This document shows positions 1,075 through 29,492 of a stretch of DNA of 64,000 nucleotides, in pieces. Every line of letters starts with the position of its first letter. Position 1 is the stretch's first letter. Under the pieces are notes generated by a model that was given only the letters and a program-made list of their open reading frames with translations, did not search any database and was not told where the DNA came from. Both the position numbers and the translations under genes were made by a program. The DNA comes from an uncultured Latescibacterota bacterium (GTDB lineage Bacteria; Latescibacterota; UBA2968): contig OX638329.1 of the NCBI GenBank assembly GCA_951812755.1, forward strand, positions 6,003,107-6,067,106, in the 5' to 3' direction.

Positions 1075-1088
1075 AGAGGAGTTTATCT

Positions 1089-1829: not shown

Positions 1830-1834
1830 ATATC

Positions 1835-3073: not shown

Positions 3074-3078
3074 TCGTG

Positions 3079-4013: not shown

Positions 4014-4016
4014 AAC

Positions 4017-4874: not shown

Positions 4875-4876
4875 CC

Positions 4877-7501: not shown

Positions 7502-7516
7502 TGGAAGGAATTACTC

Positions 7517-9352: not shown

Positions 9353-9370
9353 GTGAGATGAGAAGTTGAG

Positions 9371-9451
9371 AACCGCCTTGCAACTGTCTGAGAGAGAAGA
9401 AATAACACAGACGGGATCAGGCTGGACCACCAAACTATTGAGGTATTGAAC
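9371..9451 (+). repeat. Orphan leader-proximal fragment (45 nt) plus a solitary degenerate CRISPR repeat (36 nt)
   Basis: 9371-9415 versus 17944-17988 has 4 mismatches in 45. 9416-9451 versus the consensus repeat has 8 substitutions and 1 deletion. Confidence 0.75.
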
Positions 9452-9482
9452 CTCAAGATCAAATCAATGTAAGGAGTAAATT

Positions 9483-10115: not shown

Positions 10116-10242
10116 CAGTCTATTTCAATAATTATGCGGGATTGTATCTACATTTACCTGTCATTATTTATTTGTCATTCCAATTCAGTTCCTAACCATT
10201 CCTAACTACTGACCTCTCGCCCTTATAGGTAGTATGCATGGG

Positions 10243-10272
10243 AATGATTTGCAAAGTAATGATTTGCAAAGT
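10243..10272 (+). promoter_or_regulatory. Perfect 15-bp tandem direct repeat (AATGATTTGCAAAGT x2), each with a TTTGCAAA palindrome. Candidate operator in front of csm1.
   Basis: Read directly from the sequence. It ends 22 nt before the csm1 ATG. Confidence 0.35.
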
Positions 10273-10293
10273 GTTGAAAGGAGAGCCAGCAAG

Positions 10294-12675: not shown

Positions 12676-12678
12676 GAT

Positions 12679-13137
12679 ATGGCAATGCACTGGAGGGATA
12701 TTGTGTCTGAGGATAGACAAAGAGGAAGAAAGAATTATTCACTAAACAAAAAAGGTGCGGAGCTGATTTCAAGCGTTATCAAACAAAAAGACCAGACAGA
12801 TAAACTGGTAGATATTGCAGAAACACTAGGCCGGTTTTTAGCGGAAGGTTATAACGAGGCAATTACAACATCCCAAATCCGAAATGTTTTTGGCGAAGTT
12901 CGAAAGACCGAGATGGAATGGAAACGGGACTCTGAAGCAAGTTGGGTACGCTTACAACTTCTGCGTCCTAAACTGGCATATACAGCAAAAAAAGATAATA
13001 AAGCTCGAGCGATTATTTTTCGAGACGTGCTTTCTACTGCTATACTCAATGTTGAGGGCAACTCCGAAAATTTTCAACGATTTGTCAATCTTTTTGAAGC
13101 AATTCTCGCTTACCATCGCGCATCCGGTGGAAGATAA
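12679..13137 (+). CDS. csm2: Csm2 (Cas11 small subunit)
   Basis: 152-aa helical protein with TTSQIRNVFGEV, positioned between csm1 and csm3. Confidence 0.8.
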   Translation: MAMHWRDIVSEDRQRGRKNYSLNKKGAELISSVIKQKDQTDKLVDIAETLGRFLAEGYNEAITTSQIRNVFGEVRKTEMEWKRDSEASWVRLQLLRPKLAYTAKKDNKARAIIFRDVLSTAILNVEGNSENFQRFVNLFEAILAYHRASGGR

Positions 13138-13158
13138 AAAACGAATAGGAGCAATACT

Positions 13159-13992
13159 ATGAACACATTGGATTTTTTTCAGAATTGGCAAGGCAAAGTG
13201 ATGATTTCAGGTTGTTTGGAAGCAGTCACGGGCCTCCACATTGGAGGATCGGAGACGGGTATCGAAATCGGTGGTGTGGATAATATCATTATTCGACAAC
13301 AGTCAGATGGTCGCCCCTATATTCCGGGCAGTTCGCTCAAGGGAAAGATGAGAAGCCTGACTGAACGGGCGCACAATAAGAGGCTTATTGAAGTAGTGCG
13401 TGGACGCAACCCTATTCGGCAGCATCAATGCGATGATAACGAACCTGAAGTCTGCGAGGTCTGCAAAGTATTTGGCTTGCCGGGACAACGGAGGAACAGC
13501 CAGCCCACTCGATTAATCGTGCGAGATGGCAAGCTACTGGACGAGTTATATGTTACAGAGCCAAACGGTAAACGAAATCTTCGAAACTGGGATGATTCCA
13601 ATGTGGATACAGACATGCCGTTCTCCGAGGTAAAAAACGAGGTTGCCATTGATCGGATTACGTCAGCCGCAATGCCGCGTCCGGTTGAGCGCGTGCCCGC
13701 AGGTGCTCGGTTCAGTTATGACATGGTATTCGATATTTTTGAAGATGCGGACAAAGATCATTTGGGCCTTGTCTTTGAAAGTATGCGCCTACTGGAAAAC
13801 GACTACCTCGGTGGATATGGTTCGCGCGGTTCGGGACAAATTCGTTTTGAGTCCGTCAAAATCACCTGGCGATCTAAAACCGATTATCGGTCAGGTGGTA
13901 GTGGCACAGTGGTTGGCGATAATCTGGATTTGAGTGAAATAGCAGAAAAATTTGAAACAGAGATCAAGACCAAACTGAACGGAGTGGCGTGA
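13159..13992 (+). CDS. csm3: Csm3 (Cas7)
   Basis: LHIGGS, YIPGSSLKGKMRS, CEVCKVFG, AIDRITSAA, GGYGSRGSGQIRF. Confidence 0.9.
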   Translation: MNTLDFFQNWQGKVMISGCLEAVTGLHIGGSETGIEIGGVDNIIIRQQSDGRPYIPGSSLKGKMRSLTERAHNKRLIEVVRGRNPIRQHQCDDNEPEVCEVCKVFGLPGQRRNSQPTRLIVRDGKLLDELYVTEPNGKRNLRNWDDSNVDTDMPFSEVKNEVAIDRITSAAMPRPVERVPAGARFSYDMVFDIFEDADKDHLGLVFESMRLLENDYLGGYGSRGSGQIRFESVKITWRSKTDYRSGGSGTVVGDNLDLSEIAEKFETEIKTKLNGVA

Positions 13993-15014
13993 TGGATGTA
14001 TCTTATCTGCTGGTACGCCTTCAACCGCTCGCGCCGTTTCATCTTGGGAAACGGGGCATCGGTTTGGAGGAGACAGAGACATTTGTGCATGCAGATACCC
14101 TGTTTAGCGCGCTGTGCAATGTCTGGGTGCGCTGTTTTGGTCGAGACGATCTTGAGAATCGGTTCTTGCCATCGGTAGAAACCAGTGAAAATGGCTCACT
14201 TTTCCAAATTTCATCAGCGTACCCCTATGCCAATGATGTGCTATTTTTTCCCAAACCGCTTTCGCCTTTGCCTGTGCAAAATGTCGATTCCAAAAAACTC
14301 AAGCACTGCCGGTTTATTTCAGAACAGATTTTCAGGGATCTAATTCATGGACGCGAAATTGTCCCGGCTTCGCAGGATAGGATATTCTGGTTATCGCAAG
14401 CAGAGCAAGATACGCACGCACAATTTGACGATCAGTTTCATATCTGGCAGGAAACAGAAGTCCCTCGTGTATCACTGGATCGCGTAACGCAGGCGTCTAA
14501 CATCTTTTATTTTAGCCAAGTGACATTCGCAGAGGGATGTGGTCTATTTTTTTTGGTGAATCTGGATGCATCTTTGAGACCCGATTTTGAGATGGCTATT
14601 CGCGTCCTTGGTGATACAGGCATTGGTGGAGACCGCACGGCAGGATACGGTCAATTTGAACCCCAATTCTCGAAATTCACGCTGAATATCCCTGATAACG
14701 CTTCTCAAGCCGTAACCTTATCGCTTTTGTCTCCTCGAAACCGGGCGGAACTCTCAAATTATCTCGGAGAACAGAGTGCGTACGAACTGATTCGGCGCGA
14801 TGGATGGATTGATTCTCCAGATGGGCGGAACTACAGGCGGCGTGCCTGCCTGATGTTTGCGGAAGGTAGTGTGATAAACCGATCTGAAAATGGCATGATG
14901 GGACGGCTTGTGGATGTGACGCCAACGGCTCCTGAAGTACAGTTGACACACTCGGTTTATAGATACGGCATTGGATTCCCCGTACCGATTTGCCTGCGAG
15001 AGGAAGGTGTTTGA
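13992..15014 (+). CDS. csm4: Csm4 (Cas5-family RAMP)
   Basis: TGATG overlap with csm3. LAPFHLGKRG ... HADTLFSALCNVW N-terminus. GIGGDRTAGYGQF G-rich loop. Confidence 0.85.
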   Translation: MDVSYLLVRLQPLAPFHLGKRGIGLEETETFVHADTLFSALCNVWVRCFGRDDLENRFLPSVETSENGSLFQISSAYPYANDVLFFPKPLSPLPVQNVDSKKLKHCRFISEQIFRDLIHGREIVPASQDRIFWLSQAEQDTHAQFDDQFHIWQETEVPRVSLDRVTQASNIFYFSQVTFAEGCGLFFLVNLDASLRPDFEMAIRVLGDTGIGGDRTAGYGQFEPQFSKFTLNIPDNASQAVTLSLLSPRNRAELSNYLGEQSAYELIRRDGWIDSPDGRNYRRRACLMFAEGSVINRSENGMMGRLVDVTPTAPEVQLTHSVYRYGIGFPVPICLREEGV

Positions 15015-15015
15015 T

Positions 15016-16305
15016 ATGGCTAATGCAGTAAAAAAATACCGCGTAAAAGTTCTGACACCTGTTCATATCGGCACTGGAGAAGAACTACAAGAAAACCTGG
15101 ATTTTTACGTCAAGAATAATCGAGTTCGCGTACTGGATTTTGACCGTTTGATAGTGGCGTGTGAACAGGCTGGTATTGATCCAATGCCTTATGTTGAAGA
15201 AGGTCGTCTGGATAATTTGTTCAATTCCAGCGCAGTGTCGCAACCCAAACCAGATATTGATCCTCGCTGGGCCAAGCTGGCTGCTTTGCAAACCGGGAAT
15301 CAAGCCCAGGCGCAATTAGAGATAGATGACGGACTTGCTTATCAAGCACAGATTCAGGCCGTAAATAGACCGCAGACTATTTTGTCTCAGATCAAAACGG
15401 CCTCATCGCTGGGGTATATCCCGGGAAGTTCGGTTAAAGGAGCAATACGAACTATTTTGGCACGCCATTTGATGAACGACGACGCTGTGCGGTCTCAAGT
15501 GGCAAGGCAACTCCGTGACCAGGGTCCCAGAGCATGGCAGCGACGAGCAGGGCAAGATATGGAAAAGAAATTATTTGGTCGCAATCCCAATTATGATCTC
15601 GGTCGAGTAATTCAGGTGACAGATGTGGGTCCCGGTGCGCGTGTTCAGGTGACAGAAGTACTGATCGCTGACATGGATCGAAACGAACGACTTCGCTGGA
15701 AAAACCTGAGCAATCATCGCATTGTGAGCGACCCGAGACAAGGTACTTCAATTTTTTGCGAATGCCTGCCTGTGGGCATGGAACTTCTTACAGAGATTCG
15801 GATTGATCAGTGGTTGCTGGAACATCGAGCACTTGGATTTAATACCCATCGCGACCTGATATTGCAGTTCGAATCCCTATGCCGCGCCCAGGCCAAATCA
15901 CATCTGGAAAGAGAAACTATGTTTTTCCGAAAAGGGGGCATGAATGACCTGTCTTCTTTCTGCGAAAAGCAATTGCTGCCTCTAACAGAAACAGATTCAG
16001 GGTTCATACTTCGCGTGGGATGGGGCACAGGATGGGAAGACAAAACAGCCGGGGATAATCTGGATACTTCTCTAAAAGAAAATTTGCGACGCTGGTATGA
16101 GTTGGGTAAAATGGTGCATAAGGGATGTAATGGAGATGTAAACAGGTGGAGGGGCAGTTATTCATGCAGGCGATGTCGAAAAAACAAACTTACAGTATCT
16201 CAAATTGACCTGATCTCTCCATTTCCAAAAACGCGGAAAATTGCATTTGCAAACCAAAAGCCAGCCTACCCAATGGGATGGTTGGCTTTTGAAGCCATTT
16301 CTTAG
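15016..16305 (+). CDS. csm5: Csm5 (Cas7-like RAMP)
   Basis: LTPVHIGTGEEL, YIPGSSVKGAIRT, VGWGTGWEDKT. Position after csm4. Confidence 0.8.
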   Translation: MANAVKKYRVKVLTPVHIGTGEELQENLDFYVKNNRVRVLDFDRLIVACEQAGIDPMPYVEEGRLDNLFNSSAVSQPKPDIDPRWAKLAALQTGNQAQAQLEIDDGLAYQAQIQAVNRPQTILSQIKTASSLGYIPGSSVKGAIRTILARHLMNDDAVRSQVARQLRDQGPRAWQRRAGQDMEKKLFGRNPNYDLGRVIQVTDVGPGARVQVTEVLIADMDRNERLRWKNLSNHRIVSDPRQGTSIFCECLPVGMELLTEIRIDQWLLEHRALGFNTHRDLILQFESLCRAQAKSHLERETMFFRKGGMNDLSSFCEKQLLPLTETDSGFILRVGWGTGWEDKTAGDNLDTSLKENLRRWYELGKMVHKGCNGDVNRWRGSYSCRRCRKNKLTVSQIDLISPFPKTRKIAFANQKPAYPMGWLAFEAIS

Positions 16306-16337
16306 CTCAAAGTAGTTTATACAAGGACTGACACTTT

Positions 16338-16406
16338 ATGGCACATTTACTTATCACCACCGTTGGCATGTCTCTGCTGCCAAGTCCAAAGCGTTCTTAT
16401 AGGTGA
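16338..16406 (+). pseudogene. 22-codon remnant resembling a CARF-protein N-terminus
   Basis: MAHLLITTVGMSLLPS... with an AAGGA RBS. It parallels HTLLCTVGTSLLYP of the intact CARF gene 42 nt downstream, in another frame. Confidence 0.3.
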
Positions 16407-16447
16407 AATTTTCTATCCCAGTATTTTCAAGTGAAAGAGATTATCTT

Positions 16448-17575
16448 ATGCCTAAGCCTCACACACTTCTCTGCACTGTAGGAACCAGTCTGTTATATCC
16501 CAACTTATCTGGTCTCGTGCAGGCACCGCAGTCTGATCCAATTCAGGCGGCTTTGGCCGATGCTTTTTCCAAAAAGAATTGGTCAGAGGTAGCGATACAG
16601 CTACAAAAACTTGCGCCAACGGAGCGGCTTTGCGGTGCAGAGATCAACTCTGTAACAGACCTCCTCAAGCAGGGATTTATTGAACAAGTCCATCTCCATC
16701 TGCTCCATTCTGATACAGATGATGGACAGGTAATCGCGGAAATTTTGCAATTCTATTTTAAAGAGGATGGTTGGCAAGTAACGACCCATTGCGTGGAGGG
16801 CTTGCGCGACGATGACCCTCGCGCTTTCCGCACGCATGGCTTACGCAATCTGGCAAAAATCTTTGGAGAACGGGTGCGTGAAACTGGGACAGACTTTTGC
16901 GCGATTAACGCCACAGGCGGCTATAAAGCCCAGATCGCCATTGCCGTTCTGATGGGTCAAGCACTCGACATTCCAGTGTATTACAAGCATGAACGCTTTG
17001 ATGCCATTATCCCGTTTCCGCCTATGCCTGTGGCACTCGATTTTTCGATCTGGCAGCGGGCCAGCGGCATGTTTATGGTCCTCAGCAAGGAGGGTATTGT
17101 TCCCTGGGAGCAGTATCGTGAAGAATGGGATGAACGCTTTGAGACACTGGTCAACCGCGAGGAAATCGACGGCGAGGACTATCTGGAACTCTCCGCGACG
17201 GGTCAGATATTTCACGAGACCTTCCGAACCCGTTTTCAGCAGATAAAGGCTACCAGCCTACCGAGACCAGCAACAAAGAATGAGAAGCACGCACCCAATT
17301 TGGGCAACCATGGATACGGACAAGCGCGCACCCCCATTTTGCGGTTCCTGCAAAAACTCACAGATGAGATGCCTTACGTCCGATTTTGCCACTCAACGTA
17401 TTGGAACCCGGACCTGCCTGAATCGTCTCGGTTTCGGTCATCGGGCGAAGAAATCCAGGGCATATACTCCAACGGAACCTGGTGCGTGAAATTTAAGGTG
17501 CATACAACAACAGATGACCAGGATGTATTACCCGGCATTGTGGCTGATCTCAATGACTGGATAGAGGAAGTCTAA
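16448..17575 (+). CDS. CARF-domain protein (APE2256/Csm6-type CARF) with an unassigned C-terminal domain
   Basis: LLCTVGTSLL, CGAEINS, LLHSDTDDG, INATGGYKAQIAIAV. The last 150 aa or so have no clear Rx4-6H HEPN motif. Confidence 0.75.
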   Translation: MPKPHTLLCTVGTSLLYPNLSGLVQAPQSDPIQAALADAFSKKNWSEVAIQLQKLAPTERLCGAEINSVTDLLKQGFIEQVHLHLLHSDTDDGQVIAEILQFYFKEDGWQVTTHCVEGLRDDDPRAFRTHGLRNLAKIFGERVRETGTDFCAINATGGYKAQIAIAVLMGQALDIPVYYKHERFDAIIPFPPMPVALDFSIWQRASGMFMVLSKEGIVPWEQYREEWDERFETLVNREEIDGEDYLELSATGQIFHETFRTRFQQIKATSLPRPATKNEKHAPNLGNHGYGQARTPILRFLQKLTDEMPYVRFCHSTYWNPDLPESSRFRSSGEEIQGIYSNGTWCVKFKVHTTTDDQDVLPGIVADLNDWIEEV

Positions 17576-17684
17576 AAGAGAGTTCGCATGCGTCTGGCCT
17601 CTCTTGCCGGCCAACAGTCTCCCTACCGCCGGCGCGATCAAGAAACGTCTAAAAGAGAGTTCGCATGCGTCTGGCCTCTCTTGC
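17570..17684 (+). repeat. Two identical 38-nt direct repeats separated by 39 nt (77-nt period), each with an AAGAGAG/CTCTCTT stem
   Basis: GTCTAAAAGAGAGTTCGCATGCGTCTGGCCTCTCTTGC at 17570-17607 and 17647-17684. The first copy overlaps the CARF gene stop codon. Confidence 0.7.
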
Positions 17685-17988: not shown

Positions 17989-20900
17989 ATCAGGAAGGAT
18001 TACCCGACTACTGGGGTATTGAAACTGGGGAAGTATCTCGTTCCACGATCTTTTCACTTCTATCAGGAAGGATTACCCGACTACTGGGGTATTGAAACAT
18101 AAGCGTCTTTGACAGCTTATGCTGAAAATCGCGTCTCTTGATCAGGAAGGATTACCCGACTACTGGGGTATTGAAACTTGAACACGCAGTAGCCAACGCC
18201 AATGGTGAGCAAGGTATCAGGAAGGATTACCCGACTACTGGGGTATTGAAACTTCCAAAGACTGTCTGTTATGAGGTCGCTTTCCTCTCGCATCAGGAAG
18301 GATTACCCGACTACTGGGGTATTGAAACCATTGCCACCATTATCAACACTTCCTGTCAATTGCACCTATCAGGAAGGATTACCCGACTACTGGGGTATTG
18401 AAACCTGTAAACACACCCATATAATCCAAGATGTGTCTATATTCAATCAGGAAGGATTACCCGACTACTGGGGTATTGAAACTACTCGAAAGAACTGGAT
18501 ATTATCACCGAAAATTGCCACCTATCAGGAAGGATTACCCGACTACTGGGGTATTGAAACTTGAAGTCCCAATACAACACCTTCGAGAAAAGAGATAGAT
18601 CAGGAAGGATTACCCGACTACTGGGGTATTGAAACTTGAATAGCCTAATTCTAGACGACTCTGCAAAGTTTGGTAATCAGGAAGGATTACCCGACTACTG
18701 GGGTATTGAAACGTTCTTGCATCTTACGTAGAGCTTTATCCTGCTCAACAATCAGGAAGGATTACCCGACTACTGGGGTATTGAAACTTTTTCAACTCCG
18801 CTTCAATTTCTTTGCGGATTTTCGATCAGGAAGGATTACCCGACTACTGGGGTATTGAAACTCAATATGTGCGCTTAATACTAAAACATCCGTTCCGTTA
18901 TCAGGAAGGATTACCCGACTACTGGGGTATTGAAACTTACGTGCAGCGCGCTTCTTCATAATAGCCATGGTAACACCTCCATCAGGAAGGATTACCCGAC
19001 TACTGGGGTATTGAAACTTTCTGATATAGCTTCCACCACCATACGCAACTTTTTTTATCAGGAAGGATTACCCGACTACTGGGGTATTGAAACGATTTGA
19101 CCACGACAATAGCAGTTATTGCCTTGGAGAGCAGATCAGGAAGGATTACCCGACTACTGGGGTATTGAAACCTGTCGGGCGGTGCGTTCATCAACCGCGA
19201 TCATCGGGATATCAGGAAGGATTACCCGACTACTGGGGTATTGAAACTAATCGAATTCTTCGTATAGATGTTCGGCATGGGTGAAAAATCAGGAAGGATT
19301 ACCCGACTACTGGGGTATTGAAACTAACGTCTGCTCTACACCAACAAACCAACTTCTTACCAGCAAATCAGGAAGGATTACCCGACTACTGGGGTATTGA
19401 AACCATTCAGCCACTGCACGGAATGGCGGGATCTTCCGGGCCTATCAGGAAGGATTACCCGACTACTGGGGTATTGAAACTTTTCCGTAAGGGTTGTTGT
19501 CTTTTATCCACATGTGTCAATATCAGGAAGGATTACCCGACTACTGGGGTATTGAAACCTGTCGGGCGGTGCGTTCATCAACCGCGATCATCGGGATATC
19601 AGGAAGGATTACCCGACTACTGGGGTATTGAAACTTCTTGGATTTCTCCGTTATCCCATCTCCATAAAAATCAGGAAGGATTACCCGACTACTGGGGTAT
19701 TGAAACGAAGATTGTGGTCAGTTGTGGGAAGACAGTATTGATCAGGAAGGATTACCCGACTACTGGGGTATTGAAACCAATGATGGGTTCGGCAGAAAGG
19801 GCGACCATCTTGAGAGAATCAGGAAGGATTACCCGACTACTGGGGTATTGAAACCTGTCCATATCAGCGCAAGCATGGAGGACTCGAAAATTAATCAGGA
19901 AGGATTACCCGACTGCTGGGGTATTGAAACTTGAGCATTGCACGAACGTGAGCACCAATACGAACATTTGATCAGGAAGGATTACCCGACTACTGGGGTA
20001 TTGAAACTTGACAGCCTCGCGCCGAGTTGGTTCGAAATTCTCCGCGTGAATCAGGAAGGATTACCCGACTACTGGGGTATTGAAACCTCTATCCCAGTGC
20101 CGTCAATCCATTCCAGACCTATTCATCAGGAAGGATTACCCGACTACTGGGGTATTGAAACTTTCGGCATGTTGTCACCTTCGGGGTAATCCTGAAAGCT
20201 GATCAGGAAGGATTACCCGACTACTGGGGTATTGAAACTTGGTACGTTTTGCATAAGCCCGTCATAATACAAGTATTTATTAGGAAGGATTACCCGACTA
20301 CTGGGGTATTGAAACTGTTCGGTTTGTTCGTCTTGTTCGTCCAATATGTCAAAAAATCAGGAAGGATTACCCGACTACTGGGGTATTGAAACTTTCGCCA
20401 AAACGTATCTTTGTACTGTCATTTTCAAATCAGGAAGGATTACCCGACTACTGGGGTATTGAAACTATACAACGTCGTGGTCAATCGCCCAGACCTTTAT
20501 CTGTCCATATCAGGAAGGATTACCCGACTACTGGGGTATTGAAACTTAAACTCTGCCAGTAAAAAACCAGATCGGCTACGCGAAATCAGGAAGGATTACC
20601 CGACTACTGGGGTATTGAAACTTCTTACATAAAGGATCATTACAACCTCCAAAATTATGCCCATCAGGAAGGATTACCCGACTACTGGGGTATTGAAACC
20701 ATTTTCTGGTGACGATGTATATATCTCGATATACGGAAATCAGGAAGGATTACCCGACTACTGGGGTATTGAAACTTATCCGTCTGCTTGATAATTTTCC
20801 CTTTTGAAACGAAGGATCAGGAAGGATTACCCGACTACTGGGGTATTGAAACTTCGATCATCTCACTCGCCTCTGTAGATGTCAAAACCAATCAGGAAGG

Positions 20901-21909
20901 ATTACCCGACTACTGGGGTATTGAAACTCGCAAATATCGATATGGTGAATATCCGTCAGATAATCAGGAAGGATTACCCGACTACTGGGGTATTGAAACA
21001 GATAGATTGTGGTGCTACTCGCCTACCTATGTTGACTGGATCAGGAAGGATTACCCGACTACTGGGGTATTGAAACTTGTGAGTTTTGGAGTCAAAGGCT
21101 TCCACATCCACAAACATCAGGAAGGATTACCCGACTACTGGGGTATTGAAACCATTCGTTCCGCTAAACATACTGATGAGGTTACATATCAGGAAGGATT
21201 ACCCGACTACTGGGGTATTGAAACTTATTGCCCTGACCAACAGCATCTTCATGAGCAACCATCAGGAAGGATTACCCGACTACTGGGGTATTGAAACGAG
21301 ATAAAGCCGTCTCCTGCGCCATTATTCCAAAACAATCAGGAAGGATTACCCGACTACTGGGGTATTGAAACCTCAAATGCAAGGTCAAAATCATAATATG
21401 CGTCATCAATATCAAATCAGGAAGGATTACCCGACTACTGGGGTATTGAAACTTCTTACTCGCTACCCAACCCCACAACTCTTCACTAAATCAGGAAGGA
21501 TTACCCGACTACTGGGGTATTGAGACTGGTTAGGCGACGGAGAGAAAAGAGCAAAGGAATCAGCATCAGGAAGGATTACCCGACTACTGGGGTATTGAGA
21601 CGTTTCGGGCATTTCGCGTTCAATCTCAAACTCCACTTTATCAGGAAGGATTACCCGACTACTGGGGTATTGAGACACAAATGACAAGTAACCCACCATA
21701 AAACCAACTAACGAAAATCAGGAAGGATTACCCGACTACTGGGGTATTGAAACTTCAACTGCATCAATTCTTTTGTGAGATGTCCCAAAACGACGCTCAT
21801 CAGGAAGGATTACCCGACTACTGGGGTATTGAAACATATCTCCGGAAATCTTCTTGGAGCAGATAGAACCGGTATCAGGAAGGATTACCCGACTACTGGG
21901 GTATTGAAC
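17989..21909 (+). CRISPR. CRISPR array with 52 repeats of 37 nt (ATCAGGAAGGATTACCCGACTACTGGGGTATTGAAAC) and 51 spacers of 34-45 nt
   Basis: Repeats counted by hand (periods 71-82 nt). Variants: 19894 (A>G), 20279 (C>T), 21490/21565/21640 (ATTGAGAC). The terminal repeat at 21874-21909 lacks one A. Confidence 0.97.
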
Positions 21910-22186
21910 AGGCCATTTTTGTGGTTGTACTTGTATTGTAGCCGGAGACTCTCTATCTTTTGAACACATCGTGACGAGTGGAAAACCGCTCTGATCCATC
22001 TGCTAATACTAATCAGATATAGCAATCTTGCATCAGGTTCTCGAAACTGGGTAATCGCGGCAGGGATGCCGCTCCCACAGTAAGCGAGTTGTAGGAGGGA
22101 AATCCTTTTCCCGACTCTGCGACAGCTTGAGCAGGCAACAGACCATGCATAGTTAATTCTTACGATTGGTATAAGCTATCAAGGAG

Positions 22187-22456
22187 ATGCCAATGAACGA
22201 GCTAATATTAAGCGGATTTGACAAAGAATTAACCGATAGAATCCGGCATTTCGCAAACCAGGAGGGTATTTCGCTGAATCAAGCCGCGCTGAGACTTCTG
22301 CGCGTTGGAGCCGATCTCAAGCAATCAAAGGATAGCGGAGACACAGTTGGATCTTCCCTGGACCATCTAATTGGAACCTGGACGCTTGAGGAAGCCGAGG
22401 AATTGAATAATGCTGTGAAAGAATTTGAACAAATTGACGAGTCTATGTGGAAATGA
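22187..22456 (+). CDS. vapB: Ribbon-helix-helix antitoxin (VapB-like)
   Basis: 89 aa. ELTDRIRHFANQEGISLNQAALRLL RHH-like N-terminus. Stop overlaps the start of the PIN gene (ATGA). Confidence 0.65.
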   Translation: MPMNELILSGFDKELTDRIRHFANQEGISLNQAALRLLRVGADLKQSKDSGDTVGSSLDHLIGTWTLEEAEELNNAVKEFEQIDESMWK

Positions 22457-22761
22457 AGATTCTCCTTGACACCAATGCGTATTCACATCTGAAGCGAGGG
22501 CATCGCAGGGTTGCGGAGTTGGTACGCATGTCCGAGGAAATTTTCCTGTCGGCCATTATCATTGGCGAGTTGCTCTACGGCTTTCGGCAAGGCTCTCGCA
22601 TTGACCGTAATATTGAAGAACTTAAAGCCTTCCTCAACAACCCCTATGTCACATTTGTACCTATAAGTTTCACAACAGCCGAACATTACGCGCAGATTGC
22701 AATGTCGTTGAGAACCAAAGGGCGTCCCATCCCGTCGAACGACATTTGGGGGATTATGTAG
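22453..22761 (+). CDS. vapC: PIN-domain VapC toxin, apparently 3'-truncated
   Basis: MKILLDTNAY ... IIGELLYG ... PIPSNDIWGIM-stop. It ends where full-length VapCs continue (NDxWIAA...), so the last roughly 30 aa, including the final acidic residue, are missing. Confidence 0.65.
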   Translation: MKILLDTNAYSHLKRGHRRVAELVRMSEEIFLSAIIIGELLYGFRQGSRIDRNIEELKAFLNNPYVTFVPISFTTAEHYAQIAMSLRTKGRPIPSNDIWGIM

Positions 22762-22795
22762 GATAGTGACCAAAAGCAAAGCAAATTGGCACAAT

Positions 22796-22828
22796 AAAAA
22801 GAGCGTAGATTTAATCTACGCTCTTTTG
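22796..22828. terminator. Bidirectional intrinsic terminator
   Basis: AAAAA-AGAGCGTAGAT-TTA-ATCTACGCTCT-TTTTG. An 11-bp stem between convergent genes. Confidence 0.65.
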
Positions 22829-22842
22829 TCATGGCGTTCAAG

Positions 22843-23232
22843 TTATTCCATAAAGCCGCCACGCCTATGTCGGTGCTCTTTTAGCTCTTTGCCCAACCTT
22901 AAGATTTCATCTTGGTGAGCTTTCAGTATCTGCAAAACATCATACCAATTTGGTAAAATTTCTCCCTCCTTTAGGCCGGAATCAGGATTGTTCCTTCCTT
23001 CTCCTTTGCTATAAATCTCTCTTGAAGGGGCTCCCTGACCAAAGTTATCGGGCCATCCCTCCAGCCCCATCCAAGGATGAGTGAAGGCCATATACTTGCG
23101 GGTAGAATCCCTTGGGTCTTCAACTTCTATGTTTTCAGTGTCTGGATTGCCAGATTGCACAGATACTGGGATCAACTTACCACACTTCCAGATAGCGATT
23201 TCACCATCTTTCTTTTTTTCTTTTGTATCCAT
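22843..23232 (-). CDS. Hypothetical protein (129 aa), last gene of a small minus-strand operon
   Basis: AGGGGG RBS 12 nt before ATG 23232. No motif recognised. Confidence 0.5.
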   Translation of the reverse strand: MDTKEKKKDGEIAIWKCGKLIPVSVQSGNPDTENIEVEDPRDSTRKYMAFTHPWMGLEGWPDNFGQGAPSREIYSKGEGRNNPDSGLKEGEILPNWYDVLQILKAHQDEILRLGKELKEHRHRRGGFME

Positions 23233-23258
23233 ATCTATATCTGCCCCCTTGCAAAGGT

Positions 23259-23510
23259 TTATGGTTTTAAGGTTTCCGCAAGCATTGCGATCACCTTCAT
23301 AAGCTCTGTTGTTGTCTTTGTGTTTGCTGTGTAGAGAGCTGCGGCTATCATCAGTAAGCCTGATATAGCACCACATAGAACCCAAATCTGCACTGTTTTG
23401 AGATCTGCCTTGGTTGCCCTATGATCTAGTTCGCTTTCTAATTTACGTAGGCGTCCCTCAACGTTTGCCCTGAAATCACCAAAAGATGCTTCTATTTCTC
23501 TTTGGGCCAC
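23259..23510 (-). CDS. Small coiled-coil protein with one C-terminal TM helix (83 aa)
   Basis: GTG start with an AAGGAGAG RBS. RLRKLESELD coiled-coil-like segment, then IWVLCGAISGLLMIAAALY. Confidence 0.55.
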   Translation of the reverse strand: MAQREIEASFGDFRANVEGRLRKLESELDHRATKADLKTVQIWVLCGAISGLLMIAAALYTANTKTTTELMKVIAMLAETLKP

Positions 23511-23520
23511 AGTTCTCTCC

Positions 23521-23811
23521 TTATACTGTCATCTTAACATCTGAAATCCATTGCCACAATTCTTTGTAATTGCGACCTGCATAACTACTATTTAATTTTA
23601 CAACAATACCGAGAAAGTTGTCAGGAGCATCTTCACTTGTCATTTTTATGCGTTCAGATATAGATGCCGGAGTAACAGCATTATCGGGAGAAGAGCTGCT
23701 TGCGATCAAAATGCAACTATCCGATAGCCGATAATTTTTTGGATAGATACCTTCGATCCTCGAACAAGCACCTTTATCTTCTTTATTAAGCACAACAGCA
23801 AATACTTCCAT
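23521..23811 (-). CDS. Hypothetical protein (96 aa), first gene of the operon
   Basis: AGGAGG RBS 5 nt before the ATG. Upstream on the minus strand is TTGACT-18 nt-TTATAT at about 23855-23895. Confidence 0.5.
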   Translation of the reverse strand: MEVFAVVLNKEDKGACSRIEGIYPKNYRLSDSCILIASSSSPDNAVTPASISERIKMTSEDAPDNFLGIVVKLNSSYAGRNYKELWQWISDVKMTV

Positions 23812-23995
23812 TTCATCCTCCTTTCATAGCGCGTAGTGCTATGCTTATCCAAGGCAACGCTCTATAGATATATAACGAAACTCCTTTTCAAAAAGTCAAA
23901 CGGTTTTTTGGGGGAGGGATTATTTGCGACAGCATCTAAAATTTGAAATAATTTTTTCTTTGCGGCAATAGCAAGTATGATTATATTGCTTTTGT

Positions 23996-24253
23996 TCATC
24001 ATTAGGCAAACACCCGCAGGTCGGGTGGCCTACCGAATACAAGAGCCTATCACAAAAGCGGGGGTCGCTCCCTTGCTTGGGCGAATAGGAAGGACCTTCC
24101 GTAGATGTGTTTGCGTAATGGTGAACTCCGCCCGGCACCTTTTATCAGTGCCGACAGGGGCAAACCATTAGCACCCTTACTCTTCTTCTTCCTGAAATAC
24201 CCTTAAGCCCTGGCGGACAAGCTGAAAATAGTTTGAGTCGTCAGGGCTTTTTT
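23996..24253 (+). ncRNA. Candidate structured non-coding RNA (about 260 nt) of unknown class
   Basis: No convincing ORF. Nested hairpins: CACCCG/CGGGTG, and TAATGGT...ACCATTA enclosing CGGCAC/GTGCCG. Weak promoter TTGCGG-16 nt-TATATT at 23960-23988. Ends at a strong terminator. Confidence 0.25.
24207..24253 (+). terminator. Intrinsic terminator
   Basis: GCCCTG...CAGGGC long hairpin followed by TTTTTTATTT. Confidence 0.6.
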
Positions 24254-24338
24254 ATTTATGCTCGGTGCTGAGGGATCAACTCGGCACCGAGCGATTTGCC
24301 CACACTTCACCGTTGTTCTTAACACAGGAGGTAGAAGT

Positions 24339-24671
24339 ATGAAGCAAAGAGATAGTGATTTTTTGCGTTGGGCTGATGAGGCCAATGATTACTTAGATGC
24401 AGGGGCGCAGTCTGTGGAAAATCTGGAGCGGCTTTTCCGTGCAGCCGATAAGCTCATGAAAAATGAATCTTTCCAGCGCCTGTGCCAAGAGATCAAGAGA
24501 CTTTTCTTAGAAGCTCTGGATCGCTTAATGTCTGTTCTCGGGAGACTGGGAAGAAAAGTCGGGGAGCTTATCGAGAGTATGGATGCACAAAGCCCCCCTG
24601 GACTTTTCGGCAAAAAGGACGACCTCTTGCACAATGCTACGCTGTGCAGCATGCTAGCCATACAGGCTTAA
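24339..24671 (+). CDS. Hypothetical helical protein (110 aa)
   Basis: AGGAGG RBS, ATG 24339. A 12-bp-stem hairpin (CCGGAGGCTTAT...ATAAGCCTCCGG) lies at 24722-24752 downstream. Confidence 0.5.
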   Translation: MKQRDSDFLRWADEANDYLDAGAQSVENLERLFRAADKLMKNESFQRLCQEIKRLFLEALDRLMSVLGRLGRKVGELIESMDAQSPPGLFGKKDDLLHNATLCSMLAIQA

Positions 24672-24938
24672 TTGTCCTTATGGTATTGTGCCAGAAAAAA
24701 GGAGAATACGCACAAAGAAATACCGGAGGCTTATGAGCAAGATAAGCCTCCGGCAGTTGGCGAACACGAAGCCAGATGTAAGCTATACATTTTGACCGCC
24801 GTATCCACCGAGTATGAATATCAGAAGGGTAAAAATAAAAAATTACTCGCCCTGTGTCAAGCGAGCGAGTAATTACAATACTTTACACTACTTTGCCCAA
24901 GGCGGGTGCGGCGGTCTTATCAACGAAGGAAATAAAAT

Positions 24939-25448
24939 ATGAACACAGAAAGATACAAAGATCCTAAGAAGTACACAGAATCCGGCCTATGGAAGAAGTT
25001 GGCCAAATATGCCATTGATGCAGGCTCCGAGGTGGTGAAGATGGTCTTGGAGCTTTACTATACCTCGAAGGCTAAAGGAACGCCTATGCCGATAAAGACT
25101 GTTATTTGGGGTGCGTTGGCATACTTTATTGTGCCCATTGATTTGGTCCCTGATTTTTCCCCTGGGGGATATGTTGATGATGGAGGGGTTTTGGCAGGGG
25201 CCTTAGCTGCGGCCAAGGCATATATGACAGTAGAAACAGCGGGGCAGGCAAAGAACAAGCTTTCTCAACTGTTTGGCTCCTTTAGCAGGGGTAAGTCGGG
25301 CAGTATTAGCAGGGCAGGTAGTAGTGGGGGCCGTGGCGTAAATTCCGGGGGTGTGGGAATGCTGAGGCTGGGACTAGGGAAGGCCGACGGAAGCAAATAC
25401 AATGCGAAAAATTACAGAGAATTCAGGAGCGAAAAGAGAGGAGGGTGA
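24939..25448 (+). CDS. DUF1232 (YkvA-like) membrane protein
   Basis: ALAYFIVPIDLVPDFSPGGYVDDGGV matches the DUF1232 PxDxxPDxxPxxGxxDD signature. Confidence 0.7.
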   Translation: MNTERYKDPKKYTESGLWKKLAKYAIDAGSEVVKMVLELYYTSKAKGTPMPIKTVIWGALAYFIVPIDLVPDFSPGGYVDDGGVLAGALAAAKAYMTVETAGQAKNKLSQLFGSFSRGKSGSISRAGSSGGRGVNSGGVGMLRLGLGKADGSKYNAKNYREFRSEKRGG

Positions 25449-25557
25449 GCATGGCAAAAAATATCTGGAGATCTAAACTTAGAGCAATAACAAAGGTGTC
25501 AGCAGAGAGGGTGATTGTGCTCTTCATATTCCTTGTAAAAGCCGGGCTACGTTTACC

Positions 25558-25689
25558 TAGTGCATCGTGGCGTAAGTAATGCCCCATATAGAAGTGAACA
25601 GCAAAACCGTCTGGATTGCGGCTTTAAGCGTGCCGCAATGACAATCGCAAGTAAAATTGATATGACCAGATTCTTTTGCCGAGATGCAC
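25558..25689 (+). repeat. Dispersed repeat family A unit (about 110-130 bp, core GGATTGCGGCnnAAnnnnTGCCGCAATGAC hairpin)
   Basis: Near-identical units at 27678-27919 (two tandem). Core-only copies at 25819-25861, 29256-29296, 39631 and 39739. Confidence 0.7.
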
Positions 25690-25926
25690 TACCCGACTAC
25701 TGGATCCGCAGATGACGCAGATGAACGCAGATAAAAAATCTTGACAAGCGCATCAGAGAGGATTACCCGACTACTGGGGTATTGGAATGTCTGCTCGTCT
25801 ATGGTGCCACAATAACGAGCAAAACCTTCTGGATCGCGGCTAAAAGCCTGCCGCGATGACAGGCGGGACGACCTGGACAGCTTGCTGATGAGCATAGGGA
25901 TTATCCGCTTACTGAGGTATTGAAAC
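25690..25926 (+). CRISPR. Decayed CRISPR repeat remnants (same repeat family as the main array)
   Basis: 25690-25703 is a 14-nt core, TACCCGACTACTGG. 25752-25788 has 4 mismatches in 37. 25890-25926 keeps the 3' 29 nt with 4 mismatches while its 5' end is lost. Dispersed-repeat elements sit between them. Confidence 0.7.
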
Positions 25927-25933
25927 TTTTTTC

Positions 25934-25962
25934 TTGACAAGTGAACATTTGAGCACTATTTT
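25934..25962 (+). promoter_or_regulatory. Sigma70-like promoter candidate for the TPR-primase gene
   Basis: TTGACA-17 nt-TATTTT immediately after the last decayed repeat. Confidence 0.35.
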
Positions 25963-26060
25963 TTGACCTAAAAATTAAAATTGCTAAAAAGAGTAACGTA
26001 AGCCACAGGTGCCCCCCGCATGTGGTTATATTTTTCTCAAAAAAAGAAAGGAATCTCCCC

Positions 26061-27584
26061 ATGACAACCCCTGCGATTGAATCGTCCCCCACATCTCTCG
26101 TGGATACCCTCTGCGAAAAAGCACAGGTACTCCTGGAAGAAAACAATATAGATGGCGTGGAAGCACTCGCTTCGGAAGCCTGTGCGCGCGATCCGGCGTG
26201 CAACCGCGCCCATCAATTGATGGTCCGCATCGCCCTCATCCGAGGAGAACAGGACAGGGCAGAGACATTGCTCAATCGGTGGCGCGATTTGCCGGTAGAT
26301 GATGCATTTGCCGAATGGGGTGTCCTCGCAGAAGAAATGAACGACATCCAATCAGCCGTTGAAATCTATCAGGCCCACCTATCCCAGCACCCTCACAATG
26401 CCAAATCCCTATTTGGACTGGCAATGTTACACGCAGACCGCAACGAAAACGGCCTCGCGCAATCGCGCTTGCAAACCCTCATCCAGCACCATGCAGACCA
26501 TATAGAAGGCATCTTCGAACTCGCGCGCCTATACGAAGAAGACGGCATGATGGGCCTCGCGCAGGAACTCTACGCACGGGTACTCGAACTCGACCCGGAC
26601 CACGCGGGCGCACTCGCCGGCAAACAACTCGTCGGCGCACAATTGCAATCAACACTTCCCAGTGCAGAAATCAAAAGCCACCCCGATGTAGCCGTCCTGA
26701 TCCTCCAACTATTCGCCGCGCGAAAAGACGTGTACGCGCGCCAATGGATCGATGACGACGGAAAAACCGGCTACGTCCCCGTGCGCGAACCCCTCACAGA
26801 AAACGCGATCCAATCCCACCTGAGAGGAGATACAACTGTAGGCGTCTATCCGATTTTTGACCGGGACAAAGCACAATTTTTAGCCCTGGACATCGACATC
26901 AAAAAAGACGCACTCAACAAAGCGCGACAAAACAACACCTTAATGGAAGCACTGCGCGAACAAGTATGCAAAGACATCCGACGGGTATGCGCTGGCTTCG
27001 CGTCCCTCAACCTCCCGGTTCACATCGAAGACAGCGGGAACAAAGGCGCACATATATGGCTCTTCTTTGAAAAACCTCTGCCTGCATGTGACCTGCGCGC
27101 ATTAGGCCGCGCTTATGCGAAGCGATTTGGCCCAGCATCAGAGGAATTGCAATGGGAGTGGTTTCCCAAACAAGACGCCGTAGGAGAAGACGAACTCGGC
27201 AATTTGATCAAACTCCCTCTGGGCATCCACCGCAAAACAGGACGGCGCGCGCTATTTATCGACACAGAAGGCCACGCCCTCGCAGATATGGAAGAATTTC
27301 GCCCGGTAATTGTAGATGCAATGGTACTGGACCTGCTAAATCACGGACAAATCAAAAAAGAAGACTTTGAACAGCGCGACGGTGGTGTGTTTTTGTGCGG
27401 CGATGGACGGATGCAGTTAATCCGCGCCTATCAGGATCGCGTCGCAATTAAAGTTCAATATGTACAACCCAATGGACAGGTACAAAAAGTGCCGTATCGC
27501 CAGTGTTTCGAGTTGCAAGCCCGTCGTCTCATCCGTATGTTGCGCGGCGAAGACACAGCATACCTGCCGTTTTTAATTCGATAA
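26061..27584 (+). CDS. TPR-repeat protein fused to an archaeo-eukaryotic primase (AEP/PrimPol-like) domain
   Basis: N-terminal TPR-like helices. Then RKDVYARQW, GYVPV, HLRGDTTVGVYP, LALDIDIKKD (DxD), SGNKGAHIWLFF, GNLIKLPLGIHRKTGRR. Confidence 0.75.
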   Translation: MTTPAIESSPTSLVDTLCEKAQVLLEENNIDGVEALASEACARDPACNRAHQLMVRIALIRGEQDRAETLLNRWRDLPVDDAFAEWGVLAEEMNDIQSAVEIYQAHLSQHPHNAKSLFGLAMLHADRNENGLAQSRLQTLIQHHADHIEGIFELARLYEEDGMMGLAQELYARVLELDPDHAGALAGKQLVGAQLQSTLPSAEIKSHPDVAVLILQLFAARKDVYARQWIDDDGKTGYVPVREPLTENAIQSHLRGDTTVGVYPIFDRDKAQFLALDIDIKKDALNKARQNNTLMEALREQVCKDIRRVCAGFASLNLPVHIEDSGNKGAHIWLFFEKPLPACDLRALGRAYAKRFGPASEELQWEWFPKQDAVGEDELGNLIKLPLGIHRKTGRRALFIDTEGHALADMEEFRPVIVDAMVLDLLNHGQIKKEDFEQRDGGVFLCGDGRMQLIRAYQDRVAIKVQYVQPNGQVQKVPYRQCFELQARRLIRMLRGEDTAYLPFLIR

Positions 27585-27615
27585 CTGACTTACGCACAGA
27601 CACAATGTAATGCGT

Positions 27616-27680
27616 CTGTCATTCTGAGCCTTTCGACTTCGCTCAAGATAAACTCTGCGCAGCGGAGTCGAAGAATCTAC
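27616..27680 (+). repeat. Dispersed repeat family B (TGTCATTCTGAGC...GCAGCGGAGTCGAAG)
   Basis: Related copies at 30977-31096, 36509-36570 and 38078-38112. Confidence 0.65.
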
Positions 27681-27919
27681 TGCATCGTGGCGTAAGTCAT
27701 GCCCCATATAGACATGAACAGCAAAACCTTCTGGATTGCGGCTAAAACCATGCCGCAATGACAATCGCAAGTAAGATTGATATGGGTAGTGCATCGTGGC
27801 GTAAGTCTTGCGACATATAGAAGTGAACATCAAAACCTTCTGGATTGCGGCTTAAACCATGCCGCAATGACAACCGCAAGTCAAATTGATATGACCAGTT
27901 TCTTTTGCCGAGATGCAGT
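27678..27919 (+). repeat. Two tandem family A units
   Basis: TGCATCGTGGCGTAAGT...GGATTGCGGCT.AAACCATGCCGCAATGACAA.CGCAAGT.A.ATTGATATG occurs twice. Confidence 0.7.
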
Positions 27920-28062
27920 AGTCTCTTTTGCCGCGATGAAGTAGATACTCATTTGTCGCATGGATAACAGGACCGAGATGGAGATAAGTTGACGACAGAC
28001 CGAAAAATTGCTTTTTTCCACGCATGACCGCGCCCCTCGTGGAATTGAGCCTGAAATTAAAC

Positions 28063-28095
28063 CCCGTTGATGGAGCGTATCAACGGGATTTTTTT
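28063..28095 (+). terminator. Intrinsic terminator
   Basis: CCCGTTGAT-GGAGCGT-ATCAACGGG followed by ATTTTTTT. Confidence 0.6.
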
Positions 28096-29223
28096 ATGAG
28101 AAATCGCATGAAACCTGTCGTCGCGCACAGTGCCAACCCCTATTTACCAGCAACAGCCACCTGGATATACGATCAAATTCGCGCACTGCAACGGTATCGC
28201 CCCATCGTCCTCACACAAACGCGCCAGAACCTGGATCGTTTTCCCATAGACCCCGTTCTATCAGCTGAAGATATCTCGCCTATTCGCAGAACAGTTCTGC
28301 GCCTCATCCGCAAAATGCGCGGCACGTACGCTGGCTATGAAAACTGGCTCCGAGAACACAACGCCACCCTCATCCACGCGCACTTTGGGCAAGAAGGATA
28401 CCGGTGTCTCTCCGCAAAACAGCGCGCGGGCATCCCCCTGATCACCACCTTTTACGGCCTGGACGTATCGGCACTACCCCGGCAAAAAAAATGGCAAAAA
28501 CGGTACAAACGCCTCTTTGCCGAAGGCGACCTCTTCCTGGTTGAAGGCCCCTTCATGGGCGAACAACTCATCGCACTGGGATGCCCGGCCAACCGGGTAA
28601 TCGTCCAACACCTGGGCGTAGATCTCGACAAAATACCCTTCAGAACAGACCATACAACCAAACAACCCGTCGTATTGACATACAGCGTATTTCGAGAAAA
28701 AAAAGGATTGAAATACGCACTCCAGGCTTATGCAAAAATAGCGGAAAAATACCCGGACGCCCAACTGCGGATGATAGGCGATGGACCTTTGCGCCCGCAA
28801 CTACAAGCCGAAATACGGAAACTGCGCCTTGAAAACCGCGTAAAAATGCTCGGCCTGCTCCCCCATCCTGAAGCACTTGAAGAACTAAAACGCGCAACCG
28901 TCCTCCTCTATCCCAGCGTCACAGCATCAGATGGCGACACCGAAGGCGGCGCACCCGTCGCATTGATCGAAGCCATGGCAATGGGCGTCCCCATTGTATC
29001 ATCCCTACACGCCGACATCCCCGAAGTCGTAATCGACAAAACCTGCGGTCTATTATTTCCTGAACGAGACGTCGTGGGCCTCGCTGAAGGATTGGACACC
29101 CTCCTCAGTTCCCCCGAACAATTTGGCCGCGCTGGCCGCACCCATGTGGAAGAGCAACACAACCTGGAAAAACAGGTGAAAAAATTGGAGGCGATTTACG
29201 ATCGGGTTGTGGGAAAAACATAA
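28096..29223 (+). CDS. GT4-family glycosyltransferase
   Basis: C-terminal EGGAPVALIEAMAMGVPIVSS (the E-x7-E region typical of GT4). Start placed after the terminator hairpin. Confidence 0.8.
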   Translation: MRNRMKPVVAHSANPYLPATATWIYDQIRALQRYRPIVLTQTRQNLDRFPIDPVLSAEDISPIRRTVLRLIRKMRGTYAGYENWLREHNATLIHAHFGQEGYRCLSAKQRAGIPLITTFYGLDVSALPRQKKWQKRYKRLFAEGDLFLVEGPFMGEQLIALGCPANRVIVQHLGVDLDKIPFRTDHTTKQPVVLTYSVFREKKGLKYALQAYAKIAEKYPDAQLRMIGDGPLRPQLQAEIRKLRLENRVKMLGLLPHPEALEELKRATVLLYPSVTASDGDTEGGAPVALIEAMAMGVPIVSSLHADIPEVVIDKTCGLLFPERDVVGLAEGLDTLLSSPEQFGRAGRTHVEEQHNLEKQVKKLEAIYDRVVGKT

Positions 29224-29492
29224 AGAGCAGGAAGCACAGAAACCGCCCCCTACTACAAAACCTTCTGGATCGCGGCTTTAAGCATGCCGCGATGACGCAC
29301 CGAAGCCTACTCCGTAGTGATTCTGTACGGGAACCGTCCCCTACAACAACATCCCGCGATGACAGGTGATAGAACGACACGCGTAGCACAACGACAGTTA
29401 CGCACACCCCAAAGTATAATCCTTGACATCAGCGGCTATTGGCACAATTTATGGCGGTGCTCATTCCTCGCGTACTTAACATGGAGATAGTG

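Follow-up and report, generated by a model that had tools for sequence, protein, structure and literature searches.

Composition of the open reading frame

We analyzed a 64,000-nucleotide stretch of an uncultured Latescibacterota genome (GenBank assembly GCA_951812755.1, contig OX638329.1, positions 6,003,107 to 6,067,106 of the forward strand), referred to here as the window, and in particular a gene that follows two degenerate CRISPR repeats within it. An earlier note, made from the sequence alone, had described this gene as a stand-alone fusion of a tetratricopeptide repeat (TPR) array to an archaeo-eukaryotic primase-polymerase (AEP, or Prim-Pol) domain. We confirmed an uninterrupted plus-strand open reading frame (ORF) at 26061-27584, which encodes 507 aa counted from the ATG and has its stop codon at 27582-27584. 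A GTG 13 codons 5' of this ATG is in frame and also open (giving a 520-aa version). Because the ATG and the preceding AGAAAGGAA show no variation across seven orthologous loci, 26061 is the likely start. The gene is divided as follows, where CAPP stands for CRISPR-associated Prim-Pol, P0001 is an intact 641-aa orthologue, and L001 is the 3.3-Mb metagenome-assembled contig that encodes it.

26061..27584, plus strand: chimeric ORF of 507 aa, CAPP residues 1-409 followed by Cas1 residues 236-333 and the stop codon (translation, Pfam, NCBIfam, BLASTP, blastn)
26226..26615, plus strand: TPR repeats (aa ~56-185), the usual N-terminal domain of CAPP type A1 (Pfam TPR_19, TPR_14, TPR_16, and others; also present in P0001)
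26703..27287, plus strand: AEP/Prim-Pol catalytic domain, aa 215-409 (PF22548)
27287..27288, plus strand: deletion junction (blastn against L001, base-level alignment)
27288..27584, plus strand: Cas1 C-terminal remnant, aa 236-333 of 333, and stop codon (Pfam, NCBIfam, BLASTP, alignment of 18 Cas1 proteins)

The domain calls made in the earlier note hold for the first 409 residues. Pfam places the N-terminal TPR repeats at aa 56-185, and every AEP motif that had been quoted (DVYARQW, GYVPV, HLRGDTTVGVYP, the DxD in LALDIDI, SGNKGAHIWLFF, and LIKLPLGIHRKTGRR) is in the translation; LALDIDI, SGNKGAHIW, and LIKLPLGIHRKTGRR are the same in the orthologues, without change. The assignment of the domain to the type found in CAPP and in TOTE (TPR, OB, TBP, Effector) conflict systems is borne out by the Pfam family AEP-TOTE (PF22548; aa 215-410, E = 3e-43) and by alignment with the crystallized Marinitoga sp. 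CAPP Prim-Pol domain (7nqd/7p9j, E = 1.5e-31). The window protein scores 214.5 bits (cut-off, 200) on NF040561, the NCBIfam equivalog for CRISPR-associated primase-polymerase type A1, with only positions 24-320 of 515 covered, compared to 347 bits and positions 9-513 in P0001. The PF22548 match spans profile positions 7-212 of 230 in the window protein versus 5-227 in P0001, so that the last ~15 positions are gone. CAPP homology stops at aa 409, and tblastn with the orthologue's 230-aa PriCT-like C-terminal domain found no match in the 64-kb window. In MpCAPP, for which a TPR N-terminal domain has also been reported, the cysteine-containing PriCT-like domain mediates self-association and Argonaute binding (PMC8211822). 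TPR-type CAPP (type A1, NF040561) is a family already described (Zabrady et al. 2021). We class the gene, from its sequence, as a truncated member of this family: it exceeds the family score and lacks two defining features, the C-terminal domain and a functional cas1-cas2.

The final residues have a different origin. The earlier note proposed classifying the last ~90 aa, and these prove to match the C terminus of Cas1. Pfam Cas_Cas1 (PF01867) aligns to aa 410-458 (E = 2.6e-12) by the last 50 positions of its profile only (234-282 of 283), and five NCBIfam Cas1 models match aa 406-507, each by its final ~100 positions only; the generic cas1 model TIGR00287 scores 54.9 bits, below its 71.7-bit cut-off. 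Residues 410-507 are the C-terminal end of Cas1, and are not a Cas1 in any functional sense. The statement that no Cas1 or Cas2 partner lies nearby thus missed a Cas1 remnant within the gene itself. The architecture is likewise no novel fusion, in that TPR-AEP is the standard arrangement of TPR-type CAPP and the remainder is derived from Cas1.

A search of 5.8 billion proteins split the homologues of the gene product into two sets. One set consists of proteins of 638-641 aa with TPR and AEP-TOTE domains, which are 72-87% identical to the query over only ~81-83% of its length (aa 1 to ~420). The other consists of separate 333-aa Cas1 proteins, 80-92% identical over only the last 20% (aa 406-507). 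None of the matches spans the whole 507-aa query. BLASTP yields the same division: P0001 pairs with aa 1 to ~410 and diverges beyond, while residues 232-333 of the 333-aa Cas1 P0015 correspond to aa 406-507 at 92% identity. Compared to residues 232-333 of Cas1 from neighboring species, the window tail is 92-97% identical.

The intact operon and the deletion

The same site in nine related Candidatus Latescibacterota loci holds genes for CAPP (638-642 aa), Cas1 (333 aa), and Cas2 (93 aa). In L001, type III-D genes and a Cas_APE2256-family gene are followed by an array with a repeat identical to that of the window, and then by a small gene, a PIN toxin gene, the CAPP (641 aa), Cas1 (333 aa), and Cas2 (93 aa) genes, a small ORF, a glycosyltransferase gene, and sulfatase genes; the glycosyltransferase and sulfatase genes share 87-91% DNA identity with those in the window. 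A scan of one genome per GTDB species contributed seven further loci, all from Candidatus Latescibacterota metagenome-assembled genomes, and full-length CAPP, Cas1, and Cas2 were identified by tblastn in L007, L008, L009, L010, L011/L002, L012 (where the contig end cuts CAPP), and L003/L004. Every related locus has the CAPP gene between the CRISPR array and cas1-cas2. The earlier note had allowed that orthologues might show no association with CRISPR or defense loci. Instead, their linkage with CRISPR arrays, type III effector genes, and cas1-cas2 is tight, which supports the known role of CAPP and not a new system. At positions 1-550, upstream of its type III genes, L002 also encodes a protein of 857 aa that weakly matches a cold-shock domain (CSD), which may bear on the TPR-OB component found in TOTE-like systems.

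Alignment of the window with L001 by blastn pairs 26000-27287 with L001 9939-11233 (89.4% identity) and 27288-27582 with L001 12633-12927 (93.2% identity). The 1399 bp between the two L001 segments (11234-12632) have no counterpart in the window; they code for CAPP aa 412-641 and Cas1 aa 1-235, and the deletion thus took the 3' third of the CAPP gene (~230 residues) and the 5' 70% of cas1. At the base level, the junction (...CTCGCAGAT|ATGGAAGAATTT...) is single and clean, with no microhomology at the join itself; both parental sequences have a short patch of similarity, CCCTCGC, a few bases upstream of it. The join puts CAPP residue 409 (residue 411 of the L001 protein) directly before Cas1 residue 236, in frame, because the two reading frames of L001 are offset by +1 and 1399 equals 1 modulo 3.

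The Glu-His-Asp set of Cas1 is the metal-binding active site required for integration. We assessed residue conservation in an alignment of 18 full-length Cas1 proteins (numbered as in L001 Cas1), in which E157, H222, and D234 are near-invariant and E237, E238, R240, and D245 are invariant. The window keeps only the latter four residues, as E157, H222, D234, and the N-terminal domain (residues 1-235) are deleted; one of the four active-site residues, E237, is therefore retained. The remaining piece begins partway along the catalytic helix motif and does not correspond to a structural domain. The first 232 residues of Cas1 have no tblastn match anywhere in the 64 kb, and 21 diverse Cas1 queries match only 27201-27581 in the same stretch.

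A search for cas2 by tblastn with the orthologous Cas2 also returned no match in the window. Homology to the relatives ends exactly at the cas1 stop codon and restarts near 27940-28038, leaving the following interval.

27585..28023, no strand: interval expected to carry cas2, with two tandem ~134-nt palindrome-containing repeats (27678-27811 and 27787-27920) and unmatched sequence (tblastn, blastn)

The loss of cas2 is a second lesion, separate from the 1399-bp deletion, and palindromic repeats stand in its place. Neither a complete Cas1 nor any Cas2 is encoded at the locus.

The ~134-nt repeat is a dispersed element with imperfect terminal inverted repeats (AGTGCATCGTGGC...GCCGAGATGCACT) and a palindromic core (GGATTGCGGC-N9-GCCGCAATGAC), and it looks like a repetitive extragenic palindrome (REP) or a miniature inverted-repeat transposable element (MITE). 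Copies occupy 25558-25691, 27678-27811, and 27787-27920 of the window, with core copies at 25818-25861 and 29256-29296, and L001 carries the element at 8354, 9667, and 14963. These positions lie on either side of the chimeric gene, in the place of cas2, between the two degenerate CRISPR repeats, and after the glycosyltransferase gene.

Taken together, we consider it very probable that the gene survives as a relic of a type III-associated adaptation operon of the canonical TPR-CAPP-cas1-cas2 form, produced through the 1399-bp deletion and the loss of cas2. One deletion fused the front two-thirds of CAPP in frame with the last 98 codons of cas1, and a separate lesion exchanged cas2 for palindromic repeat elements. 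The two explanations offered in the earlier note are not upheld. What had been suggested to be a Prim-Pol recruited to a type III locus without adaptation genes appears to be the truncated first gene of a CAPP-cas1-cas2 operon that is intact in nine relatives, and what might have been a separate single-gene conflict system appears to be a CAPP gene fused to a cas1 tail by the deletion. As far as the alignments tell, the locus is a decaying adaptation module of a known kind, and neither a new single-gene defense system nor a recruited Prim-Pol.

Promoter and predicted products

Two features lie directly upstream of the gene; L006, mentioned below, is a Candidatus Latescibacterota chromosome (OZ253501.1).

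25752..25926, plus strand: two degenerate CRISPR repeats (25752-25788 and ~25892-25926) around a copy of the palindromic element, in the same arrangement as in L001 and L006
25934..25962, plus strand: promoter-like TTGACA-17-TATTTT, with 10 of 12 matches, conserved upstream of the operon in all relatives

The promoter reported in the earlier note, TTGACA-17-TATTTT, does begin 8 nt past the degenerate repeat that ends at 25926. It is the sole sigma-70-like site reported in 25400-28100, and, with one site found versus 2.8 expected in shuffled sequences, it does not rise above chance on its own. Conservation provides the stronger argument: the block TCTTGACAAGTGAACATTTGAGCACTA(A/T)TTTTT is nearly invariant over seven orthologous loci amid flanks that are variable or rearranged, which favors a genuine operon promoter located immediately past the last degenerate repeat of the array. 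This pattern supports the site as the normal promoter of the CAPP-cas1-cas2 operon. An Rfam scan of the window found no match at the gathering threshold.

The chimera is probably expressed, since the conserved promoter and the ribosome-binding site are intact, and it would then still be transcribed and translated as a TPR-PrimPol with a 98-residue Cas1-derived tail. Spacer integration by the locus's own machinery has presumably been lost, and would be impossible because the Cas1 N-terminal domain, E157, H222, D234, and Cas2 are all missing. The III-D and III-A effector modules, together with the 52-repeat array described below, should still be able to interfere using existing spacers.

Selection on the chimera and alternative explanations

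Several points weigh against reading the gene as a relic. In the CAPP part, the window lineage has 12 nonsynonymous and 15 synonymous private substitutions (omega = 0.24), which is in the same range as in intact orthologues and differs from neutrality at P = 3e-4 along the whole terminal branch. The Cas1 tail has accumulated no nonsynonymous and two synonymous private changes. The ORF is intact and in frame, an outcome that a random deletion yields one time in three. Our analysis also covers only 64 kb, so that a second cas1-cas2 elsewhere in the genome is possible, and an assembly error is formally possible, though very unlikely.

Other lineages carry between 3/7 and 21/11 private nonsynonymous/synonymous changes, and those of the window lineage that alter amino acids are conservative and clustered in the TPR-AEP linker. 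Between the window and L001, the Cas1 tail shows 1 nonsynonymous and 19 synonymous differences. We also compared pairwise ratios of nonsynonymous to synonymous rates (dN/dS) for the CAPP part, which are 0.10-0.19 between the window and its relatives and 0.085-0.17 among intact orthologues. This measure gives no sign of relaxed selection, with window values indistinguishable from those of intact orthologues. Given an omega of 0.24, either the deletion occurred late on the branch or the TPR-AEP product is still useful; the selection figures suit a recent deletion and continued selection on the chimera equally well.

The alternative that best survives is a chimera that functions and is under selection, acting either as a lone TPR-PrimPol conflict or repair factor or through its Cas1 tail, an interaction module that might, for example, contact a Cas1-Cas2 from another part of the genome or regulate adaptation. 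The in-frame ORF with its conserved promoter and ribosome-binding site, the private substitutions at an omega of 0.24, and Prim-Pol motifs that are the same as in orthologues all agree with this possibility. Published work on the family is also favorable, as the isolated CAPP Prim-Pol domain, without a C-terminal domain, is reported to be an efficient primase in vitro (PMC10345425), and MpCas1 binds the portion of CAPP without the C-terminal domain (PMC8211822). The chimera may, by analogy with the isolated domain, keep primase/polymerase chemistry without an integrase partner; the clipping of the AEP domain by ~15 positions and the foreign tail count against retained chemistry. We nevertheless regard a functional chimera as unlikely. 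It has no second occurrence in any collection searched, all close relatives have three separate full-length genes, the Cas1 piece falls short of a structural domain, with its start in the catalytic helix motif, ~15 C-terminal AEP profile positions are gone too, cas2 was lost separately, and the low omega is equally expected under a recent deletion.

An artifact of assembly or consensus building, with an intact CAPP-cas1-cas2 in the true genome, is very improbable. The window genome is absent from the searched collections, so no independent assembly of the junction is available, and the related genomes are themselves metagenome assembled. However, the junction is clean and has unique sequence on both sides, with no repeat long enough to collapse; a separate second lesion (the loss of cas2 and insertion of repeat elements) affects the same operon; and a comparable deletion arose independently in L006.

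That the gene belongs to a TOTE conflict system (family definition, PMC12458937) and not to CRISPR adaptation has almost no probability: the best Pfam match is named AEP-TOTE and the C-terminal domain of the intact orthologue weakly matches Mu_Gam-Sipho_Gp157-TOTE (E = 0.018-0.048), but the gene passes the NCBIfam CRISPR-associated primase-polymerase equivalog, each related locus has it between a CRISPR array and cas1-cas2, and Pfam or NCBIfam found no TPR-OB/cold-shock (CSD) or TBP gene among the flanking ORFs scanned (the PIN toxin, DUF1232, glycosyltransferase, and unassigned ORFs, with more distant genes scanned in part). Membership was rejected on gene context, and we take the Pfam name to denote the AEP clade.

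Recurrent decay and uniqueness of the chimera

Decay in related loci agrees with the relic interpretation. L006, which is 96-98% identical to L001, carries an operon at 7700-8150 that decayed independently. One lesion is a 5-bp deletion that shifts the CAPP frame near aa 588; the other is a 1063-bp deletion, whose sides overlap by ~10 bp, that takes the whole of cas1 together with the opening 17 codons of cas2. In two metagenomic samples, a distantly related locus (L014 2249-3442 and L015 2241-3434) encodes P0145, a different and degraded in-frame chimera that joins the C-terminal part of the AEP domain and part of the CAPP C-terminal domain to Cas1 profile positions 61-221, and the short ORFs beside it are possibly further fragments. 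Because L006 and L014/L015 decayed independently, erosion of this operon type recurs, which suggests that CAPP::Cas1 deletion chimeras arise repeatedly as decay products.

The window chimera itself is absent from the 5.8-billion-protein database. An exact-sequence index holds no record of its 507-aa or 520-aa version, nor of either of two start versions of the neighboring glycosyltransferase. A degenerate 23-mer over the junction gave 0 matches in JGI metagenome contigs, and a junction-spanning 158-aa query against 1.84 billion representative proteins found none with the same junction. Two candidate natural AEP-Cas1 fusions, P0129 and P0250, were rejected, as Pfam shows one of the two domains in each.

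Genomic context

The remainder of the window surrounding the gene contains the following features.

1-7501: type III-D module, with a Cas10 fragment at the window edge, Csx10, Csx7-like RAMPs, and Csx19
7517-9352: TIGR02221-family CRISPR-associated gene
9483-10115: EcsC-family gene
10234-16305: type III-A module, Cas10/Csm1 to Csm5
16403-17575: Cas_APE2256/TIGR02619-family CRISPR-associated protein
17989..21910, plus strand: CRISPR array, 52 copies of the 37-nt repeat ATCAGGAAGGATTACCCGACTACTGGGGTATTGAAAC
22187-22456: small ORF, matching the L001 gene upstream of its PIN gene
22447-22761: truncated PIN toxin gene
~22750-25750: ~3 kb not present in the closest relative
28024 onward: glycosyltransferase and sulfatase genes

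The III-D (Csx10/Csx19) and III-A (Csm1-5) modules stand in tandem beside one array and accessory CRISPR-associated genes (1-17575), and L001 has only the III-D module at the corresponding site. The lost adaptation module would have worked on the 52-repeat array. Just 5' of this array, its leader region contains a perfect 38-nt direct repeat, GTCTAAAAGAGAGTTCGCATGCGTCTGGCCTCTCTTGC, at 17570-17607 and 17647-17684 (77 nt apart), and within the array a spacer-repeat unit is duplicated (19135-19257 and 19522-19644, 97% identical). We found no spacers shared between the window array and the arrays of L001-L012, and even L001 and L006 have none in common although their flanks are 96-98% identical. 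Arrays therefore turn over quickly in this lineage and hold no timing information on the loss of adaptation. The ~22750-25750 segment is missing from both L001 and L006 and breaks the 3' end of the PIN toxin gene (104 aa versus 132 aa in L001); it encodes a DUF1232 protein (24939-25448) and ORFs without a family match.

Comparison with known systems

The window protein most closely resembles the TPR type of CAPP_A (the CAPP of Marinitoga piezophila and Marinitoga sp. 1137; NF040561; 7NQD and 7P9J). Both place TPR before an AEP Prim-Pol with the quoted motifs, and the window gene likewise sits beside a type III CRISPR locus, directly upstream of cas1 sequence, with a score above the NCBIfam cut-off. 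In contrast to TPR-type CAPP, it has lost the whole PriCT-like C-terminal domain and ~15 terminal AEP profile positions and is covalently joined to a Cas1 fragment; compared to MpCAPP, its TPR-plus-linker region is longer (~210 versus ~100 aa). Among Cas1 integrases, the closest NCBIfam models are Cas1c, Cas1d, and Cas4g/Cas1g, and the last 98 residues are 92-97% identical to sister 333-aa Cas1 proteins, including the invariant EEFR motif, but residues 1-235 are missing, and with them the N-terminal domain, the catalytic Glu/His pair, and the first Asp.

Fusions of reverse transcriptase (RT) or Cas4 to Cas1 offer a similar case, in that a polymerase or nuclease domain and Cas1 sequence share one polypeptide in an adaptation operon. 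RT-Cas1 and Cas4-Cas1 fusions contain a full-length, catalytically competent Cas1 and have an architecture that different lineages conserve. The Cas1 of the window is a 98-residue stump by comparison, and its architecture is found only here. Like other degraded or orphan CRISPR loci, from which it does not differ in kind, the locus has kept effector modules and an array and lost cas1-cas2; it is a clear case, with deletion breakpoints resolved to the single base. We see nothing of a new kind in it: descriptions of the family, of its architecture, and of the link to Cas1-Cas2 were published in 2021, and NCBI annotation of the family is routine.

Implications

The locus is a caution that a plausible single-gene Prim-Pol conflict system beside CRISPR can be a deletion chimera, which was revealed only by syntenic comparison. 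It is distinctly unlikely that CAPP(1-409)::Cas1(236-333) is expressed and selectively retained as a working TPR-PrimPol, a natural "minimal CAPP"; if it were, a role in repair or defense, or in modulating a Cas1-Cas2 encoded elsewhere in the genome, might follow. Under the far more probable explanation of operon decay, these Latescibacterota type III loci repeatedly lose the adaptation operon by differing lesions while keeping long arrays and two effector modules. Such loci could provide a natural series for assessing how long type III interference outlasts the loss of adaptation.

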